A stretch of DNA of 64,000 nucleotides from Curvularia clavata (GCA_023920165.1 CP089277.1:3472001-3536000); one strand, 5' to 3'; shown: positions 52,497-62,341, counted from the stretch's first letter. Notes: generated by a model from the letters alone, not told the origin. Made by a program: numbers and translations.

Positions 52497-54773
52497 ATGG
52501 CGTCTGAAATACTTGGTCAAGCTACGGAGAAGGTCAAGGGCCTCACTGGCGAGAAGACAGGCAAGGTGGCTCAGCTTGCTGCAGTCACCAAGGACGTCCA
52601 TGACGACAAGTGGAGAATAACCAGCGACTATGGAGCGAAGCAGAGCAACACCGACGACTGGCTGACCGTCGGCAATGATGACCAAACCGGTCCCTTGCTG
52701 CTCGAGGACCACTTTGCTCGTGAGAAGGTATGCTTGACCGCATATAAGCTGCCACATTAGCCATATAACTAACAGCAATAGATTCATCGCTTTGACCACG
52801 AGAGAATTCCCGAGCGTGTCGTTCACGCGCGTGGGTCCGGCGCCTTTGGAAAATTCACCCTCTTCGAGTCGGCCTCTGATGTCACGTCAGCCGGAGTTCT
52901 TACTGACACTTCGCGCGAGACTCCAGTCTTTCTACGATTTTCCACTGTGCTTGGTAGCCGGGGCTCCGCAGACACGGTCCGTGATGTGCGTGGCTTTGCC
53001 GTCAAGTTCTACACCGAAGAAGGCAACTGGGACATTGTCGGCAACAACATCCCAGTATTCTTTATCCAGGACTCGATGAAGTTTCCCGATGTGATTCACG
53101 CTGGCAAACCAGAGCCAGACTGCGAAGTACCACAGGCCCAATCTGCCCACAACAACTTCTGGGACTTCCAATACATGCACCCTGAAGCTACACACATGTT
53201 CATGTGGGCCATGTCAGACCGCACGATTCCTCGCTCGTACCGAATGATGCAAGGTTTTGGTGTCAACACATACACCTTGATCAACGCCAAGGGCGAGAGG
53301 CATTTCGTCAAGTTCCACTTCACACCTGAGCTCGGTGTCCACAGCTTCGTCTGGGACGAGGCCCTGAAGATTGCTGGCCAAGACCCAGACTTCCACCGCA
53401 AGGACTTGTGGATGGCGATTGACAGCGGCGCGTACCCCAAGTGGAAGTTTGGTATTCAGGTTATTCCCGAAGCCAAGGAACACGACTTTGAGTTTGACAT
53501 TCTCGATGCTACCAAAGTATGGCCTGAGGAGCTCGTTCCCGTTCGGTACATTGGTCAACTCGAGCTCAACAGGAACCCTGACGAATTCTTCACCCAGACT
53601 GAGCAAGTCGCATTCTGCACAAGCCATATCGTGCCTGGTATTGGCTTCAGCAATGACCCTCTGCTTCAGGGCCGCAACTTCTCTTACCAAGACACTCAGC
53701 TCTCTCGCCTCGGTATCAACTGGGAAGAGCTACCCATCAACAAGCCTGTCTGCCCTGTCATGAACTTCAACCGTGACGGTGCCATGCGACATACCATTAC
53801 AAAAGGCAAGGTCAACTACTGGCCTAACCGCTTCCATGCTGTGCCACCTGCGAGCGAGAAGGAAGGCGGATACATGGACTACCCTGAGAAGACTGCTGGT
53901 ATCAAGGCCCGCATGAAGAGCAAGAAGTTCCGGGAGCACAAGAACCAGGCTGAACTTTTCTACAACTCCATGTCGGAGAACGAGAAAATGCACATGAGGG
54001 ACGCTTTCGCTTTTGAGCTCGACCACTGCGACGACCCTGTTGTTTATGAGCGCCTCTGTGAGCGTCTGTGCGAGATCGATCTTGGACTGGCTCAGAGCGT
54101 TGCCGAAATGGTTGGTGGCGAGCAGCCAACCAAGCAGACTCGTCCCAAGCACAACAAGACGGCCAAGGGTCTTTCCCAGATGGACTTTATGCCCGAGAAG
54201 CCTACCATTGCGACGCGCATGGTAGCTATTCTCATTGCTGATGGCTACGACAAGATTGCCTACAACGGCATCAAGGCTGCCCTGACTGCTGCTGGTGCTC
54301 TTCCCTTCACCATCTCGCCAAGGAGAAACAAGATCTTCGCCGACGGAGAGGACAGGAGCGGCTCTGGTGTTGTTGCCGATCACCATCTCGAGGGCCAGCG
54401 GTCCACCATGTACGACAGTGTCTTCGTTCCTGGTGGCGCCAAGTCGATTGAAACGCTCAGCAAGAACGGTCGTGCCGTCCACTGGGTGCGTGAGGCATTT
54501 GGCCATCTCAAGGCCATTGGTGGTACCGGTGAGGCAGTTTCGTTCATCAAGCAGGCTGTCGACCTACCTGGTATGGCATTCTCAACCTCTGGTGACGTTG
54601 TCAACAGCTATGGCGTTGTTACTGCCACGGCAGTGCAGCCGGAGAGCTTCAAGGACGCTGTCAACATGGCGAAGGAGGCCAAGGACTTTGTCAGCGCGTA
54701 CCTGTACGCAATTTCGCAGCACAAGAACTTTGAGCGTGAGAGCGCGGGACTGAACCAGATGGTTGCATACTAA
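52497..54773 (+). CDS. catA: Large-subunit monofunctional catalase without signal peptide (CatA/Cat-1 spore type); exons 52497-52727, 52782-54773
   Basis: GPLLLED..AREK|IHRFDHERIPERVVHARG (distal His), RFSTV.GSRGSADT.RD.RGF, RNFSYQDTQ (proximal Tyr), C-terminal DJ-1-like domain; intron GTATGC..CTAAC..TAG. Confidence 0.95.
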
Positions 54774-55772
54774 AGCGTGGGATCGGACATGAGCAGAAAC
54801 GACACGGAAATGACTTGAAGCAGGCTGCTGAAAGGGTTTTAGCTGATTAAACGTAATAATGATACCACTTGCCACATTGACAGTTGTGCTTCTGTATAGT
54901 TGTTGCTCGTAATCCCACACAGCAATGTTTCTGAATAGGGCCTTTTTTTTTTATATCTGGGCAGTTGTCTCGCCTTGAAACAGGACATGCTACCAAGAGC
55001 ACACTAGCGATACGAGAGCAAAAGGTGCCTGGACCCGATACACACTATTGTGCCATACCCATGTCGCACGCATACGAATCAAACAAGGTGAGCGCGGGGT
55101 AAACGCACGCTGAACTCATACTCGCCAGTTCCATCAGGTGGTGGAGGCAGAGTTGGTCTGCTCAGCCACATGCCCCACGGACGATTGGCTGCACTGACGA
55201 CGCTAGCCTCTTTGGGGGCCGCTGCGCCCTTATGATGGGCGAAGGGCGGTACAGCCATTTAGTGCTGACTCTGTCCCGTATGTTTCTTTTCATCCACCGT
55301 AGAATGCCAGCCCAAATCCATTGCGCAGTCCAGTGCGCAGAAATGTAGTCGCCTACGGGGACGCGCGAGAATCGCCTCTGTCAGCAAGCTCGCTTGTGCC
55401 GGCGATTGCGCCCCAGCAAAACGCGCTATTGCGTTCCAAACGACGCTCTTGGCAAAGTCGTAACTTACAAGCCATCGGCGGCAATTCCCCGCTATTGCTC
55501 TCACCGGTGGCCTGAACCTCGGACGCTTGATCAACGCTCAGCCCTTCAGCGCCGGGAAGGGCTGCATGAATGACTCCGACCGCGAAACCAAAGTCCCTGT
55601 AGGCGCAGCGCCCTTTGATCTGAAATACCAAACACCACGCCTCAGGCTGCTGAACCCTAACTTCCCCGTCATTCTTGCTCATACCCTTGGAGGTCGACCA
55701 CGACGGAACAAGGCGCCTTTTCACCGACGACGCCCTCTTACAAATCCCATCCCAGGAAGTAGTATCAACGTT

Positions 55773-58700
55773 ATGGATCATCAGGGCGCAGGCTTCGCCT
55801 TTGACTCCAACATGGATTTCACAAACATGTTCGCGGCCACGTCCGCAACCTTGTTCAAGCCAGCGGATAACACTTCTGGCTTCTTCCTTGCCGACGAGGG
55901 CATCGATACAACGACTTCGTCCTTTATCGATCCCACCACATTAGGCACGCCCCAGCAGGGCGCATACGACATGAACATCCAACCCGCCGCAGATTACTTT
56001 CCAACAACTCCAGCAACGCAGTTCCTCGATGCTATGCCCACGCAGTACAACAATGCTTACGGCAAGCGTCCACTGCAGCTCGAGACTGACGACTTTCCCC
56101 AGTCGAAGCGTCAAGCAACTTATGACTTTCCTCTGTTTCCTACACCACCCACAACAACAACCTCTAGCTGGGCCCTGGAGCCAACCCCCTCTACTACCAC
56201 AGTCGAAGGTCTGTCGGATGAGGCGGCTGATGTATGTGCGACGTGGTTCACCAAATACAATGTGCTCCCTGGGTACGTCAACTCCCACTGACTTCTAATC
56301 ATTACATCCTGGTCGGCTAACAGCCCCAAAGTGACAGGCATATCGATTCATTAAGCCAGCTCACTGGTGAATCGGCCGACGCAATCCGCAGCTGGTTCGG
56401 CCAGCTTTTGAAGCAAGGCATGGGCAAGGGAGGACCAAGTGACTCTGCTTACAAATCTCAAACCGCACACATCCAGCAGCAAAGCTCGTTCTGGGATGAC
56501 CACACTTACCAGACAGACCTCCTGCAGGCCTCACCACATCAGCCACTACAGATTCTGGCCGAAGACACGACCCCAGAAGTGTCATTCAACCAGGACAACA
56601 CCGTCTCTGCTACCGTTCAGCCAGTAGCCCCCATCAGAAGCTGCAAGAAGCGCTGCACGCCTACCGATGACTTGGAGTTGCTTACTAGAGACCCCCGAAA
56701 GATTTACCAGTGCACTAGGAAATGCGGCAAGCGCTATGGGCGCAAGAACGACTGGAAGAGGAAAGAAGAGGAAGGCTATCCATGCAAGTCATGGGTATGC
56801 AGCCTGTGCATCAGTGAGGGCGTGGAGAACGTCAAGCCCTGCTACAGGAAGTACCATTTCGTACAGCATTTTCGAAATATCCACGCCGATGTAGACCCCG
56901 AGGACCATGAGGAATCGAGCATTGTTTACTCGGAGACAGAATTTCCACGAAAGTGTGGCTTCTGTCGCCACCGATTCGCATCTCGACAGGAACGTATTGA
57001 TCATATCGCCGATCACTTCAAGCAAGGCAAGTGCATGCTGGACTGGCGCGATGATGATGAGAACGACGTAGACGACTCCACGGATGACGACAACGATGAC
57101 CGTCCAGGTGGAGATGGCTTTGACGGTAGCCCTTCCTCTCAACCACCACCTTTCCATCCACGTGACGGTAGCGACTCGAACTCTTTCGGCGGCCAAGGCA
57201 GCAGCGGTGATCCTACAGGACAACCTCCACAGGGTGGATTCTTCCACTTCCAGCTCTCACAGCTTGGTGAGAGCCAGCGGTATTGTGCGGTCCCACCTAC
57301 CAAACCCACTACACTTTCGCCGAACATCTCTCAGTCATCAATCTCACCTGATTGCGGAGGCACGTTCCCAGCAGATGAGTTTTCTAAGCAACAATGTCAA
57401 CTCAACGGACACAACTCGGCAACGGGAGACTACGAAAATGCTCTGGCCGGAGATGCTTTCGCCCAGTCCGTAACGACGGACAATGAAGGATCGATGGAAG
57501 AGCTACTAGATGCTCGTGGTTTGGAACACACGTGTGGAACCAATGCTGCAGTCAGCTTCGAGACCGGAGTACTGCGTTCGACTCCCACACCATCTCTGAG
57601 CCAGCCAGAGGCAATGCTGGATGAATCGATAACGGGTGAACAAGACATTGGGACCCCAGGACTGTTGCCCGACATGACAATCTCAACGCACTCTCAACGC
57701 AACAACGCGAAAGACCAGACATCAAGTCCATTGTCTCTGCCGCTCATTCCACTTTCACGCGCCTTCCAAAGCATCAAGCTCCTCGGTGCCGGCGGCTTTA
57801 GTACAGTCGATGAAGTCAGGCATCAGCAAACGGGACTGCGTATTGTGAGAAAGACACTCAAGAATCGTAACCAGACGGCACTCGACGAGCTGAAGAAGGA
57901 AGTCAATGTACTTCAGAAGCTCCGTCACCCACACATAATTCGCTACCTTGGAGCCTACTCGAAGGGCGACAAGATGTCGATCCTACTTTCGCCCATTGCA
58001 GAGACAACACTCGCAGTTTGGCTCGATAGGTCAGCGGCGCAACAGCCTGCGAACTTGTTTGAGATTATTGTCAAGATGTTTGGTTGTCTCGCCTCGTCTG
58101 TCAGATATCTCCACGAACAACGGCCTGTTGTCAAGCATATGGACATCAAGCCCCAGAACATCCTGGTTGTCGAAGGTGATCGTGAATTCCCGCACGTCAT
58201 ACTTTGCGACTTTGGTGTCAGCTCTGCAGAAGACAAGTCTGACGACCAGTCACGACCCTGGACACGCCAATACATCGCACCCGAGGTGTTCGAAGGCTTC
58301 ACTCGTAAACAAGCTGCTGACATCTGGAGTTTGGGATGTGTCTTTGCAGAAATGGCATCCATTCCGCTAAGCCAAGACAATGCGGAATGGTTGGATTTTG
58401 GTAAGGCATTCAGCGGAAGATCAGGCACGTATTACTGGCAAGATGTACCAGGCGTACAGAAGAAGCTCTCTGCCCTCGCTGAGGCAGCAAAGAGACCGGC
58501 TGAACAATCAGTCGTTCGCATGATCCAATCTATGCTCAGCGCCCAACCCGAAGAGCGGCCGGATGCGTCATCCCTCACCATGGTCTTCACTCCTGCACCA
58601 TGCTGTCTCAACTGGCCGAACGACAAGATGATTTTCCCTGGTCCGCATGAGGAGTTCCACGAGGTTGAGAAATTTGGCAAACAACACGGCATCGACCTGC

Positions 58701-60130
58701 ATGACCAGAATGCAATCGACCGTGCTGCCAGTGCTGAAATTGCAAAGACATGGCTCGACGATTGTTTGTGTACTCACAGTGGTTGTCGCCACTCCTCGAC
58801 GGATTACTCCAGTAGTCTCCCTAGACGTCTGATTGACACACTACCCGAGGGCCAGCCCGGAAGATATGTCCAAATTGTCGAGAGTATTGAGCTTTGGAAA
58901 CCGGACATACAATATGTTGCACTCAGCCATGTCTGGAGCCACGCAGAGCCTATTCTTTCGAGCAATTCACAATCGAGGATGCAAACTGAACTTGGCCTGG
59001 AAGAACTACCTGTCGCCGTAAGGAATGCGATTTTGCAAGTCCAGCAACTCGGCTTCCGGTACTGTTGGCTCGACTCACTCTGCGTTCTCCAAGACTCGGA
59101 ACAAGAAAAGGAACAGGAGTGCACTAGCATGTCTTCAACCTTCCGTAATGCGGTGCTCACGGTCGTCCTTGACCAACTGACAAGTGCCAAAACGAGCATG
59201 TCCCCCGTACCTGTACTTGAACAGTCGAATACGGCGGGCAACCCGTCGCCCAGTTCACCGTTTACACCCATGGTAGACATCGATCCGATTGCGACCCCAC
59301 TACCAGCGTCCGCTCTGCTACCAGCGGACGTTCTCGCTGCACCCAACCTAGGCTGGGATACAAGGGCATGGGCTCTCCAAGATCGTCTACTCAGTCGCCG
59401 CTTCCTCCACTTGGGAGAACAGGCATACTGGGAGTGTAACACACTCAAGGCATCCGAGACCTTCCCTCAAGGCTTACCTGCCCTCCTCTGGGAAAAGACA
59501 CATACTCAATGCAACAAAGACGAACTGCGTGCGCAGAGCCCTGCCCTGGATCCTTCCAGTCATGATCGTTCCCAGTTTTCCAAAATTCGTAAACATGCCC
59601 AGACCTCTAGGCAAAGCAAGACCATCACCCTCGGCAGGACATGTCCTACAGTTTTCCCTGTCATTCCTTGGACAGAATCGACGCTGGCGTGCCCACCCAA
59701 TGCTACCTCGGAGCCGCACCCGCCCCTCCCGTCCGCCAGCCGCCTGCGCAACTGCCAGTGGATCAAGAAACAAGGCGACGACGCGGGCCAAGGCACCGAA
59801 GCCGTCCAAGCTACCCTCAACATCCATGACCGGATTGACTGTTTGGCTCATTCCGATCACAGTCACAGTACGTGTTGTAGTTGTAGCGACAACAGTAGTA
59901 GGCAGGACAATATCCGCATGCCCGACATATGTGGGAATGCGAATGCGAATGGGAATAGGAATGGGAATAGAAGGAGTGCAGATGTGAATGCGAATGCGAA
60001 TGGAAATGGGAGTACTGCAATTGCGAATGGGAGAGTGGCTGCTAGGTTCACGGCTGTAGAGGGAGTTGCCGACTTGGGTTACAAGGGTGAGGATGATTCT
60101 GCTGCCAACATCGCCAATGCACTTGTGTAG
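55773..60130 (+). CDS. Multidomain protein: degenerate homeodomain + C2H2-like fingers + Ser/Thr protein kinase + HET domain; exons 55773-56272, 56332-60130; alternative in-frame ATG at 55566
   Basis: Intron GTACGT..CTAAC..AAG joins WFTKYNVLPG-DRHIDSLSQLTGESADAIRSWFGQ (homeodomain-like); CSLC..HFRNIH and CGFC..HIADHF fingers; kinase GAGGFSTV, HMDIKPQN, DFG, YIAPE, DIWSLG; HET LPRRLID, YVALSHVW, YCWLDSLCVLQD, RAWALQDRLLS. Confidence 0.85.
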
Positions 60131-60519
60131 TGGCTTGGTAGTAGGGCGCACCGCTTCACGTCAGTGAGTGGCAGGTCGCGTCAGTGGGGAAGCGCCATTG
60201 TGCTTTCTTACACTTTTTTTACCTTTTGTTTGTGGTACGAACGTTTTCTCATGTCTTCATTTGGAGTAGTTACGACATATAGTTACGATATACTTTTAAG
60301 TTTTTCAATTCACAATGTTGTTTCGATGATTCTGCTGCCTCTTTAGTGTGTCAAGGTGAGGTGATTGAGGGAGAAGAAACGTCTTCTTGTCATTTTGTCG
60401 CGTAGTGATGAAGGACATGTACGCGATACACTGGTGTAACTTTTCGCCAACCGGCTCCAGATAGCTTCTATTCGTATCCTCGCTCATCAAATCAAAACAT
60501 CAAAACCTCCCTTTTGCAC

Positions 60520-61627
60520 TCACGCCTCCGGCCTCACTTTACCCCTCCTCTCCCTCATCTCACCCACCCTCCTCCTATCCTCTTCAAACTTCCTCTTCAG
60601 CTCGCCCTCGGCCTTCTTCCTACGCTCCCTATTCTGGAACCGATAAAAGTCATCCGTCGCCCTGTGATTCCTCTTTCTTTCATCCAACTCCGCCTTCTTC
60701 TTCTCTGCCTCTTCTAGCCTAGCAGGCCCGGCTCTGCCGCCTCGTACAACAGCCACGAAGCCGTCTTCGTCGGGGACGGAGCGCGCTGTTTTGCGCAGGC
60801 GGTTGCGCATGGTTTCTAGGGCGTTAAATTGGGAGAGGTAGGCGTTGAGGGAGGCTTGGAGGAGGGAGGGGGAGGGGTACAGGAGGGATGTGTGAGATTT
60901 GTAGCCTTTTGTGTGTGTATGTTAGCATTTGTCCTTTTAGTAATTTGTCCAAGAACAAGAGCAGGTAGAGGGACGTAGAAAGGAAGGAAAATAACATACG
61001 CTCAACACCCATATTCTCTCCGCCTCTCCACACAATCTCCTGTCCTTCCTTGACAGCTTTCTGAACCGCCTTCATTGCGCCCCTCGCACTCTTCTTGTCT
61101 ACAAATACAACGACAGCAGCGCTACCGCTTCGTCTCAACTCGCTGCTCCATAGCTTGGGCAGCGCACTTTCTGCATCTTCGACTACGCCTTCGGCCACCA
61201 TGGCGGGATCATCAGGTGTCCTCTTTCTCTTCTTGCCCCTCGCGGCATTGTCTCCAGACACAGCGTCCTCTTTACCCACCGCACGCGGCGTATCGCTCTT
61301 CCACCGCTTATGCAGCGGCTGCGCAGGCACAGAACTATCGAATTCGACGCGTTCGACCATGGAGCCGCCCAGTTGCTCGACGAACAGCGCGCGTACGTTG
61401 GCTTCTGAGGCGTCCATTGGTACGTTTACAATGAAGAGGCTGCGCTCGTCCGACTCGCTGGGTATGCTGGGCGCATGTGGTTTTACGTAAATGTAGTGTT
61501 TGGCATTGTTGCACTGGTCTGGCAGGCCGGGCAGCGCGGGCAGTGTGAGGGGGAGAATTGTAAATTCGGCAACGGTTTTTGGGATAGATTTAGCCTTCTT
61601 AGCCGTTTGCGGCGCGGTGGGCGCCAT
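60520..61627 (-). CDS. RRP7: Ribosomal RNA-processing protein 7; exons 61627-61000, 60905-60520
   Basis: HYIYVKPH, RSLFIVNVP.D, AVVVFVD, spliced GVERYKSH..LYPS...LQ, VPDEDGFVAV.R, DFYRFQ.RE, FEEDRRR; intron GTATGT..CTAAC..AAG. Confidence 0.92.
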
Positions 61628-62341
61628 TGTGAGTGGTGGTGCGGTTTGCGCGGGCGACGAGAGATGGGTGCTGTCTGGTGGTGTTTCGGCGATGGGCTTC
61701 GAGTTCAGAACAACTTGACTGGCGTAGCTCAAGCGCAGTACGTTCTAGGCAAGCGCTGCGTCGGCTGTAGAGAGGAAAGAGCGGGTACGTCGTGGGCGTC
61801 TTCAGATGTATGCGCAAGTACAGGTCGTGGTGGTGGGTATTCGGCGCTCACGAAATTTTGGCAGGGTTGGCACGGCCTTCTAGCTGGAACGCCGATCCCT
61901 GGCTTCGTGGCCGCATGCTTTGGCGTGAACATTATAGCCATCAGATCACCGCGCATACACTTATTCTGAAAAGATGAACGATGATAAATTCAACAATCTC
62001 TTCGCTTAACTAAAAGTTACAGATTTTATGCCGAAGCAGGTTTTGTGGCAAAGCGCCATGTAGAGAAACGTAAACAAGAATATGGATATCAATGCGTTCG
62101 TAAATCGTAACGACAGTGAGTAATGATTCTCTCAGCACAGAGAGTAAATAGAAATTATATAATGATACCGTGATTCTACTCTACCTGCAAAAACAAGCAG
62201 TAGCAGGCACTTTCGGATCAAGCTTTTACAGTAAAGTGATTTGGGTATTGAAATACGGCCGTGTCATGGACGAGACAAAAGAATCGAAGATGGGTACGCA
62301 ACATCATGACCAAGCCTCAAAGCCACACAAATGTAGGCGCT

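Follow-up and report, generated by a model that had tools for sequence, protein, structure and literature searches.

A conserved homeobox-C2H2-like module joined to a non-RD kinase and a HET domain in a single gene of Curvularia clavata

The DNA analysed here is a stretch of 64,000 nucleotides from Curvularia clavata (GCA_023920165.1, CP089277.1:3472001-3536000), referred to below as the window, and our subject is one two-exon gene that occupies positions 55773-60130 on its plus strand and whose spliced product has 1432 amino acids. From the N-terminus to the C-terminus, this protein carries a homeodomain-like fold, three C2H2-type fingers, an acidic linker, a non-RD Ser/Thr kinase and a HET domain. 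A previous interpretation made from the DNA alone (the sequence-only reading) had described a four-part single chain of this kind and had taken its DNA-binding parts to be decayed. The architecture proved to be real, as Pfam matches to the kinase and HET domains, profile and fold links for the N-terminus, assembled contigs and orthologs all indicate; the decay did not.

Gene structure, kinase and HET domain

Exon 1 (55773..56272, plus strand) begins with the ATG at 55773 (MDHQG...) and encodes acidic/aromatic N-terminal motifs, a KR-12-KR motif and helix 1 of the homeodomain-like fold. It is followed by a 59-nt intron (56273..56331, plus strand) with a GTACGT donor, a CTAAC branch site and an AG acceptor at 56330-56331, and then by exon 2 (56332..60130, plus strand), which includes the stop codon at 60128-60130 and contains no earlier stop. 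Frame analysis found that the upstream frame stops shortly past the GTACGT at 56273 and that a frame of 1269 codons is open from 56321 to 60130. The two exons join in frame, and the spliced translation is letter for letter residues 70-1501 of the deposited protein P0001, a C. clavata 'hypothetical protein' of 1501 amino acids that is 100% identical over the N-terminal part of the long frame; residues are numbered below as in P0001. The earlier claim of one chain with no stop from 56332 to 60130 is therefore borne out by the frame analysis and the deposited protein, as well as by intron-less contigs from two studies. That reading had also placed one intron as the link between a transcription-factor segment and the kinase and HET parts. 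One intron of 59 nt does exist, but it interrupts the homeodomain-like segment, separating helix 1 from helix 2, and is not at the boundary between the transcription-factor-like part and the kinase.

Contigs from these two studies (X1 and X5, same coded organism), both of which cover exon 1, omit exactly the 59 bases between GT..AG ends, with the joint at 56271>56331. A single X1 contig runs from 55328 to 56271 and then from 56331 to 60273, carrying the transcription-factor-like, kinase and HET parts together, and a single X5 contig runs from 55311 to 56271 and then from 56331 past the stop codon to the end of the compared stretch. In addition, loose ends of X9 at 56272 and 56331 carry letters of the opposite exon, which is the same junction. 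No sequencing run is on record as RNA; we read these runs as RNA because of the intron-less form and the unequal depth of the adjoining X1 contig (60 vs 238). Since the contigs run across the locus in intron-less form, the intron is real and the transcription-factor-like part is unseparated from the kinase-HET part in the assemblies, so that the split into two transcripts, which the sequence-only reading had named as fatal to its proposal, was not found. We conclude that the locus is one expressed gene encoding a single chain.

The NCBI model of the gene begins 207 nt further upstream, at an ATG at 55566, and the additional segment (55566-55772) adds 69 amino acids that are absent from orthologs. 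We aligned 43 orthologs spanning Pleosporales and Mytilinidiales, nearly all of which begin at the Met of position 70, and M70 is nearly invariant. Moreover, the X1 and X5 contigs, and also a loose end of X9, contain a 16-nt insertion behind 55692, with which the upstream ATG would no longer be in frame. Because the orthologs begin at this Met and the insertion breaks the upstream frame, the start was taken to be 55773. Probably the 69-residue extension is untranslated, or else the window assembly carries a 16-nt deletion in the 5' leader.

The Ser/Thr kinase domain (57767..58576, plus strand) matches Pfam Pkinase (PF00069) with an E value of 5e-41. Judged by its residues it has the signature of an active kinase, comprising the Gly-loop, the beta-3 Lys, the alpha-C Glu, HxD, Asn, DFG and APE, and the positions concerned (G721, G723, G724, K743, E759, H838, D840, K842, N845, D862-G864 and A885-E887) are invariant in the 43 orthologs; the Gly-loop, HxDxKxxN, DFG and APE motifs that the sequence-only reading had listed as retained are all among them. 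The kinase is of the non-RD type, with HMD in place of HRD in the window and HMD, HLD, HGD or HTD in the orthologs. Among the module-fused kinases examined (P0001 and 19 more distant relatives), 16/20 are non-RD and 4/20 have HRD. The best relatives of solved structure are generic (CDPK, MEK1/2, CTR1 and DAPK, E 2e-20 to ~1e-17) and, since the best of them reaches only 2e-20, no close known kinase subfamily can be named. Behind the kinase lies a short motif (58586..58606, plus strand) that ends in Cys-Cys, with C993 and C994 invariant, and in 14/20 of the module-fused proteins (P0001 and 13/19 relatives) the kinase is followed by a '..CC' motif of this kind.

The HET domain (58745..59509, plus strand) consists of an N-terminal W-x3-C-x3-H-x2-C lead-in, a variable insert and a Pfam match at 58913-59380 (PF06985, E 1.4e-18, 68.1 bits vs a cut-off of 22.5). 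Its mean identity among orthologs is 50%, and its conserved blocks are invariant, including W1148, D1150, L1152, C1153, T1246, R1247 and W1249, so the domain is intact. Passages of reviews view HET as a distant TIR relative and a cell-death module (PMC12881547, PMC10197012, PMC4986451), and according to one such passage HET alone suffices for cell death in other proteins. The review passages also state that only a small fraction of HET genes act in allorecognition, most of them not being het loci, and that what the others do is unknown. The protein ends in a tail of low-complexity Asn/Ala/Gly repeats (59510..60127, plus strand), which has 18% mean identity and could be aligned in 35% of ortholog pairs. 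One contig of another coded organism (X10) omits 159 bases of this tail (window 59826-59986); the ends are TG..GT and not intron-like, and the skip probably means that the low-complexity repeat is polymorphic in length.

The N-terminal module and its ancestry

The part of the protein ahead of the kinase is invisible to Pfam, which gave no match over the first ~640 of the 1432 residues (~710 in P0001 numbering). It nonetheless includes the most constrained segments. Mean pairwise identity among the 43 orthologs reaches 0.75 in the homeodomain-like segment and 0.77 in the fingers, compared with 0.64 in the kinase, 0.50 in HET and 0.18-0.26 in the linkers and tail. Invariant columns number 17/68, 52/139, 71/278 and 34/255 in the homeodomain-like, finger, kinase and HET segments, respectively, with the top share in the finger module. 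On these alignments, the homeodomain-like and finger segments are the slowest-evolving part of the protein and are not decaying.

The three-finger C2H2-type module (56636..57052, plus strand; residues 338-476) departs from the classical pattern in a graded way. Finger 3 (56948..57022, plus strand) fits the classical spacing, with C444-X2-C447-X12-H460-X3-H464 followed by the C-terminal motif of the family, and does not vary across 68 sequences, distant relatives among them. Finger 2 (56792..56884, plus strand), in which a helix is predicted, has a longer spacer (C392-X2-C395-X15-H411-X3-H415, plus H420), and its ligands are invariant in the 43 orthologs. Finger 1 (56705..56785, plus strand) has C363, C367, K380 and C387 and lacks both canonical His, and Pfam found none of the three at E<=10. 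Many short ortholog models in the databases (among P0126-P0148) stop just past the conserved His-Phe-x-Gln of finger 2 and continue with unrelated residues, which suggests that other Pleosporales have an intron at this site that is absent in Curvularia, and would explain many 'finger-only' fragments.

The sequence-only reading was right that the first finger has no His ligand: H380 is found in 0/111 orthologs. The loss is matched by a gain, as C344 is present in 111/111 orthologs and a Cys at 375 and/or 387 likewise in 111/111 (89 at position 375, 73 at position 387). Within this clade, C375 alone, C387 alone and both together occur, and neither never does; the window protein has Asn at 375 and Cys at 387. 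In distant relatives the situation is reversed, with H380 in 97/97 and a Cys at 375 or 387 in 2/97. The second canonical His of finger 1 is present in only 15/97 distant relatives and, since most of them lack it, the zinc site of this finger was probably non-classical in the family already. Most likely, then, finger 1 exchanged a His zinc ligand for Cys and did not lose its zinc, although zinc binding by the rewired finger is deduced from this covariation. The fold appears to be kept as well. An AlphaFold2 model of the window's own finger segment (56636-57064, from 68 sequences) has a mean pLDDT of 89.6 and a pTM of 0.74 and contains three beta-beta-alpha-type units. In the model, finger 1 has strands at 24-25 and 33-34 and a helix at 37-47 (pLDDT ~95), and the helices of fingers 2 and 3 lie at 72-82 and 117-129. 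A Foldseek search with this model returned tandem C2H2 arrays in all top rows (WT1, Zif268, KLF4, PRDM9 and CTCF).

Ahead of the fingers lies the homeodomain-like three-helix segment (56208..56422 with the intron included, plus strand; residues ~215-266). As the sequence-only reading had noted, its recognition helix lacks the Asn of WFxN and the basic tail: the helix retains W48 and F49 and carries Gln at position 51 and Leu at position 53, and across the orthologs position 51 is Q or R in 97/104 and N in 1/104. A basic N-terminal arm (Arg5) is also missing, the residues ahead of helix 1 being acidic or neutral both in the window and in the ortholog consensus. AlphaFold2 applied to an 88%-identical Exserohilum ortholog (P0121, with a 60-sequence alignment) predicted three helices with a pLDDT of 93-97. 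All 40 top rows listed by Foldseek for this model are homeodomains, with probabilities of 0.93-1.0, rmsd values of 1.3-1.8 A and a target TM of up to 0.86, and in the independent VIA search homeodomains make up 37 of the top 50 rows (Z 8.3-5.7). For both models, the Foldseek assignment rests on the uniform identity of the top rows and not on E values. Thus, the predicted structure has the three-helix homeodomain fold, and the sequence has neither Asn51, Arg53 and the basic tail nor the Arg5 arm, and does not reach the Pfam threshold.

Several lines of evidence connect this module to known transcription factors. The earlier reading had staked its N-terminal assignment on a homeodomain or C2H2 match, and here the outcome is divided. 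Pfam yielded no homeodomain or zf-C2H2 match in seven orthologs even at E<=10, but a protein of 555 amino acids with Pfam homeobox matches (P0194; PF00046 and PF05920) aligns through its finger region to the window protein with a pairwise E of 2e-14 and has the same domain order, and profile hits and the AlphaFold2 folds agree. A profile built from seven module sequences found 934 proteins at E<=1e-3, 254 of them at E<=1e-10. When 54 non-orthologous hits of this profile were scanned, three had homeobox matches and 15 had sub-threshold zf-C2H2 matches. In two of the kinase-less relatives (P0206 and P0207), the homologous homeodomain-like segments pass the Homeobox_KN cut-off, with 26.1 and 25.0 bits vs 24. 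These profile links, the pairwise match and the predicted folds support the descent of the N-terminal module from a homeobox-plus-C2H2 transcription-factor family. P0206 and P0207 each have two tandem Asn51-less homeodomain-like copies ahead of their fingers. The Asn51-less helix is found in kinase-less relatives (P0206, P0207, P0212 and P0222), with Asn in 5/39 alignable distant relatives; because relatives without a kinase have it too, we regard it as a trait of the family and not as decay that followed the fusion.

The description of the DNA-binding parts as 'decayed' or 'damaged' is thus not sustained, since the module is the best conserved part of the protein, the loss of the finger-1 His is matched by Cys in every ortholog, the fingers are predicted to fold with good confidence and the Asn51-less helix is shared with kinase-less relatives. 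A recent, pseudogene-like decay of the module was likewise considered and rejected, on account of its conservation and of the Cys compensation in finger 1.

The remainder of the N-terminal region is largely disordered, with a few conserved islands. A KR-(12 aa)-KR motif (56064..56111, plus strand; K167, R168 ... K181, R182), all four residues of which are at least 90% conserved in the 43 orthologs, resembles the bipartite consensus of nuclear localisation signals. A conserved Phe-rich, Asp/Glu motif lies near the N-terminus (about 55830-55900), and a conserved aromatic/Gln motif follows an Asp-rich run at about 57190-57225; these two motifs could serve in activation or docking. The latter belongs to the acidic low-complexity linker (57053..57760, plus strand), which comprises the Asp-rich run, this short motif and a poorly conserved rest, and which has 26% mean identity, 0 invariant columns and a pLDDT <50 where modelled.

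Distribution of the fusion and setting of the locus

The sequence-only reading could not say how widespread the architecture is. A survey with the N-terminal 470 residues found 135 proteins of similar length at E<=1e-3; among the best 120 of these, Pkinase was matched in 120/120 and HET in 119/120, the single exception being marked partial. The named sources are some 45 genera of Pleosporales together with Mytilinidion and Lophium and, going by these matches, the full architecture is order-wide in Pleosporales and Mytilinidiales. Database names are of little help in recognizing the family, as its members appear as 'hypothetical', as 'protein kinase domain-containing' or, misleadingly, as 'MAP kinase kinase'.

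Beyond this clade, the parts of the protein have different histories. Pkinase was found in 19 of the 54 scanned non-orthologous profile hits; three of these 19 also have HET and one has ankyrin repeats. Compared with the window kinase, the kinases of the 19 relatives give E values from 1e-10 to 1e-52, and 17/19 reach 1e-31 or lower; the best solved kinase gives 2e-20. The named taxa that combine module and kinase are Pyrenula, which we take to belong to the Eurotiomycetes, Icmadophila, Bacidia and Xylographa (presumably Lecanoromycetes), Glutinoglossum (presumably Geoglossomycetes), and Coniosporium and Eremomyces (presumably Dothideomycetes). With these assignments, the module-plus-kinase core appears to be present in at least four classes of Pezizomycotina. 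The HET domain is scattered among these proteins: Coniosporium apollinis P0320 (1750 aa) has the module, the kinase and the HET signature, while in the clade around P0277 the kinase is present in 10/10 and HET in 1/10. Because the kinase matches and the '..CC' motif are shared beyond the clade and HET is scattered, the module and the kinase look like a constant, old pair, and HET like a variable C-terminal add-on, in place of which other members have ankyrin repeats or nothing. Other C-terminal arrangements were also seen. PF24883 occurs in P0024, with HET, and in P0332, without it, and ankyrin repeats follow the kinase in P0087 from Lentithecium, with HET, and in P0293 from Glutinoglossum, without it. 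By its domain matches, the C-terminal output of the family is modular.

In a quick maximum-likelihood tree built from 69 module rows, excluding the fragment P0211, the 15 Pleosporales/Mytilinidiales rows form one group (SH-aLRT 81) beside a pair from Eremomyces (97), one with and one without a kinase. Truncated gene models probably contribute to the 'kinase-less' rows of this tree.

The genes on either side of the fusion gene are housekeeping genes. Directly upstream lies a large-subunit catalase (52782-54773, plus strand), with Pfam Catalase (E 1e-167) and Catalase-rel matches and a C-terminal DJ-1/PfpI-like domain. Downstream, and convergent with the kinase-HET gene, is the rRNA-processing gene Rrp7 (60520-61744, minus strand), whose RRM_Rrp7 and RRP7 C-terminal domains fall in two frames, probably because an intron splits the gene. 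The X5 contig continues from the kinase-HET gene into Rrp7.

Variation at the locus was sampled in a comparison of four runs. Against the contigs of organism A (another strain or species), there are eight coding differences in 4.3 kb, four synonymous and four not, and none of them falls in the homeodomain-like, finger or kinase segments. A het allorecognition locus was considered and rejected because of this low between-strain variation, as far as four runs can tell, the order-wide orthologs and the catalase/Rrp7 neighbourhood; the same observations suggest a conserved signalling component and point away from a locus of the het type.

Possible function of the fusion protein

Parts of this protein resemble several known systems. 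Among these are the C2H2-homeobox transcription factors of filamentous ascomycetes, such as VdChtf1-7 of Verticillium dahliae (PMC11423567) and P0194; relatives of the P0194 type share with the window protein the order of homeodomain, finger 1, further fingers, last-finger motif and acidic stretch, and the module profile links them to the window family at E values down to 1e-30 and better. In contrast to these factors, the window protein lacks Asn51, Arg53, the basic arm, the finger-1 His and one finger of the relatives, and has ~950 additional residues that hold the kinase and HET. The Verticillium paper (PMC11423567) makes no mention of kinases (0 occurrences). The heterokaryon-incompatibility proteins HET-E/D/R, TOL, PIN-C and HET-6 have the same PF06985 blocks and the same W-x3-C-x3-H-x2-C lead-in; here, however, HET is C-terminal behind a kinase, with no NACHT/WD or other repeat sensor, and the gene is order-wide and little-varying, whereas theirs are polymorphic and lineage-specific.

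Other likenesses concern the logic of the protein. Plant NLRs can carry integrated decoys, such as the WRKY domain in RRS1 and, by analogy only, both join a transcription-factor-derived domain with altered DNA-contact residues to an immune-type signalling domain in one chain. Unlike these decoys, the present module exceeds the signalling domains in conservation and has no known effector, and there is no NLR core: Pfam gave no NACHT or NB-ARC match to the window protein, which thus does not qualify as a fungal NLR. PKR, in which nucleic-acid-binding domains precede a kinase, and the death-domain kinases are also single-chain sensor kinases. They share the principle that a module for binding precedes a kinase, to which the window protein adds a death-type output domain. 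No sequence relationship to PKR-type or death-domain kinases was found, the best solved kinases being the generic ones listed above. Finally, HOP and ceramide synthase have homeodomain folds that do not bind DNA, and both are among the structural matches of VIA (1uhs, Z 6.7; 8qz6, Z 5.9; 1x2m, Z 5.7). They show no specific sequence relationship to the window protein and lack fingers, kinase and HET; by analogy, the homeodomain-like fold may be used for contacts with proteins, a role that some homeodomain folds have. Literature searches, including the locus tags of five orthologs, retrieved no description of the architecture or of an ortholog, although supplements of Pleosporales knockout screens could list one.

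We consider it reasonably probable that a conserved, transcription-factor-derived module acts as the input or targeting part of a non-RD kinase with a HET output. In such a protein, the module would give specificity by binding a particular partner, and the KR-12-KR motif, the acidic/aromatic motifs and the two classical fingers suggest that it would do so in the nucleus. The partner might be a nucleic acid, contacted through fingers 2-3, or another protein, contacted through the homeodomain-like fold. Its binding would position or control the kinase, the constant companion of the module, which would presumably transduce the signal, and HET would be the downstream output in this lineage; the order from input to kinase to HET is itself conjectural, as would be any cell-death output.

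A number of points weigh against this picture, and every mechanistic step in it is an inference. The contigs show no transcript ends, so that they are also compatible with an extra internal promoter, and the RNA label of the runs is a guess. With regard to the folds, and besides the missing Pfam matches, Foldseek E values reach only 0.09-0.3 for the homeodomain-like model and 0.05-0.7 for the finger model (target TM at most 0.49), with none at E<=0.001 for either; the VIA Z scores, at most 8.3, are within the range that the tool calls common; and the module profile compared with the sequences of solved structures recovered only low-complexity Asp-rich stretches (E>4). An earlier and longer AlphaFold2 run on the whole N-terminus of P0121 gave the finger-1 region a pLDDT of just 41-55. 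The ligand swap amounts to about one evolutionary event in one clade, so 111/111 does not count independent observations. Since Asn51, Arg53 and the basic arm are missing, classical DNA binding by the homeodomain-like fold is doubtful on sequence grounds. Kinase presence is patchy on the module tree, with 11 changes of which at least five are forced by well-supported branches, and a single ancient fusion is therefore not demonstrated. A docking prediction between the N-terminal module and the kinase-HET part scored 0.00, which is no verdict and no evidence either way.

It is unlikely, in our estimate, that the protein instead works as a transcription factor through fingers 2-3, its acidic segments and its nuclear signal, with a kinase that acts on chromatin or transcription proteins at target genes and a HET domain that is regulatory or oligomerising and not lethal. 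In its favour, the layout of the transcription-factor relatives is kept (homeodomain-like fold, fingers, Asp-rich stretch, acidic/aromatic motifs and KR-12-KR), fingers 2 and 3 have full C2H2 ligand sets, the strong purifying selection fits a specific binding function, and passages on Verticillium ascribe developmental and stress roles to C2H2-homeobox factors (PMC11423567). However, the DNA-contact residues are missing from the homeodomain-like fold, the finger module is predicted to form one compact unit (pTM 0.74) and fits DNA-wrapped arrays badly when superposed (rmsd ~15 A), and the HET blocks are invariant in a domain that, according to the review passage mentioned, can kill cells by itself in other proteins. 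As for a mere annotation artefact, in which a small transcription-factor gene and a kinase-HET gene were merged through a chance open frame, we give it almost no weight and reject it. Some database models are indeed split, among them P0121 of Exserohilum turcica, whose 459 residues include the module alone, and short fragments are numerous; but these split models finish in non-homologous tails or sit on short contigs, the open frame of 1269 codons continues through the supposed boundary, which is also bridged by single contigs in two studies, and nearly all of the best N-terminal relatives have kinase and HET in the same protein. P0121 itself is annotated as a 'C2H2-type domain-containing protein' and consists of the N-terminal module of the ortholog and a non-homologous tail; probably the gene model has been split, and the protein is no transcription factor in its own right.

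It is tempting to speculate about an integrated decoy, as the sequence-only reading did, in which the module mimics homeobox-C2H2 factors, an attacker of these factors is caught, and kinase and HET trigger death in the absence of an NLR; we judge this rather improbable. In plants and animals there is an association between kinases of the non-RD type and innate immune receptors, and the canonical DNA-contact residues are gone from the module, both of which would suit a decoy. The view of HET as an immune-type, TIR-like module in the reviews cited would suit it too. Moreover, kinase-less relatives that might be guarded do exist, even beside the fused form, as with P0204 and P0232 of Eremomyces, which are sisters on the module tree. 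Nevertheless, plant integrated decoys are typically polymorphic, and this module is the most conserved part of its protein. There is no rapid turnover either, given the order-wide orthologs, the low between-strain diversity and the housekeeping neighbourhood; the odd residues are compensated, in finger 1, or common to kinase-less relatives, at position 51, and hence give no evidence of lost function; and no effector of this kind is known. Slow evolution and low diversity are unlike plant decoys and het loci, yet they are compatible with a sensor. A bolder version of the input-kinase-output picture, which we hold to be a long shot, would be an innate sensor in one chain and independent of NLRs: in the nucleus, the rewired module would recognise a foreign or aberrant ligand, for instance nucleic acid that is damaged or comes from a virus, or an effector that targets homeobox-C2H2 factors, and would switch on the non-RD kinase, which in turn would license HET to carry out cell death. 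If true, Pleosporales would have a conserved fungal counterpart of sensor kinases of the PKR or RIPK type.

Few domains in fungal genomes are as abundant as HET and as little understood, and the gene described here is unusual among HET genes: it is order-wide and little-varying, and its HET domain is firmly tied to what looks like an active kinase and to a recognition module under strong constraint. With one gene, clear point mutants and several transformable species of Pleosporales, it would offer a tractable handle on the function and control of HET outside allorecognition. The loss of His and gain of Cys in finger 1 of every ortholog is, in addition, a clean natural case of apparent zinc-ligand replacement, easily misread as degeneration. 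Finally, our results show that a homeobox-C2H2 module has long been reused as the front end of a family of kinases that carry no other label from automated annotation than 'protein kinase domain-containing' or 'hypothetical'.

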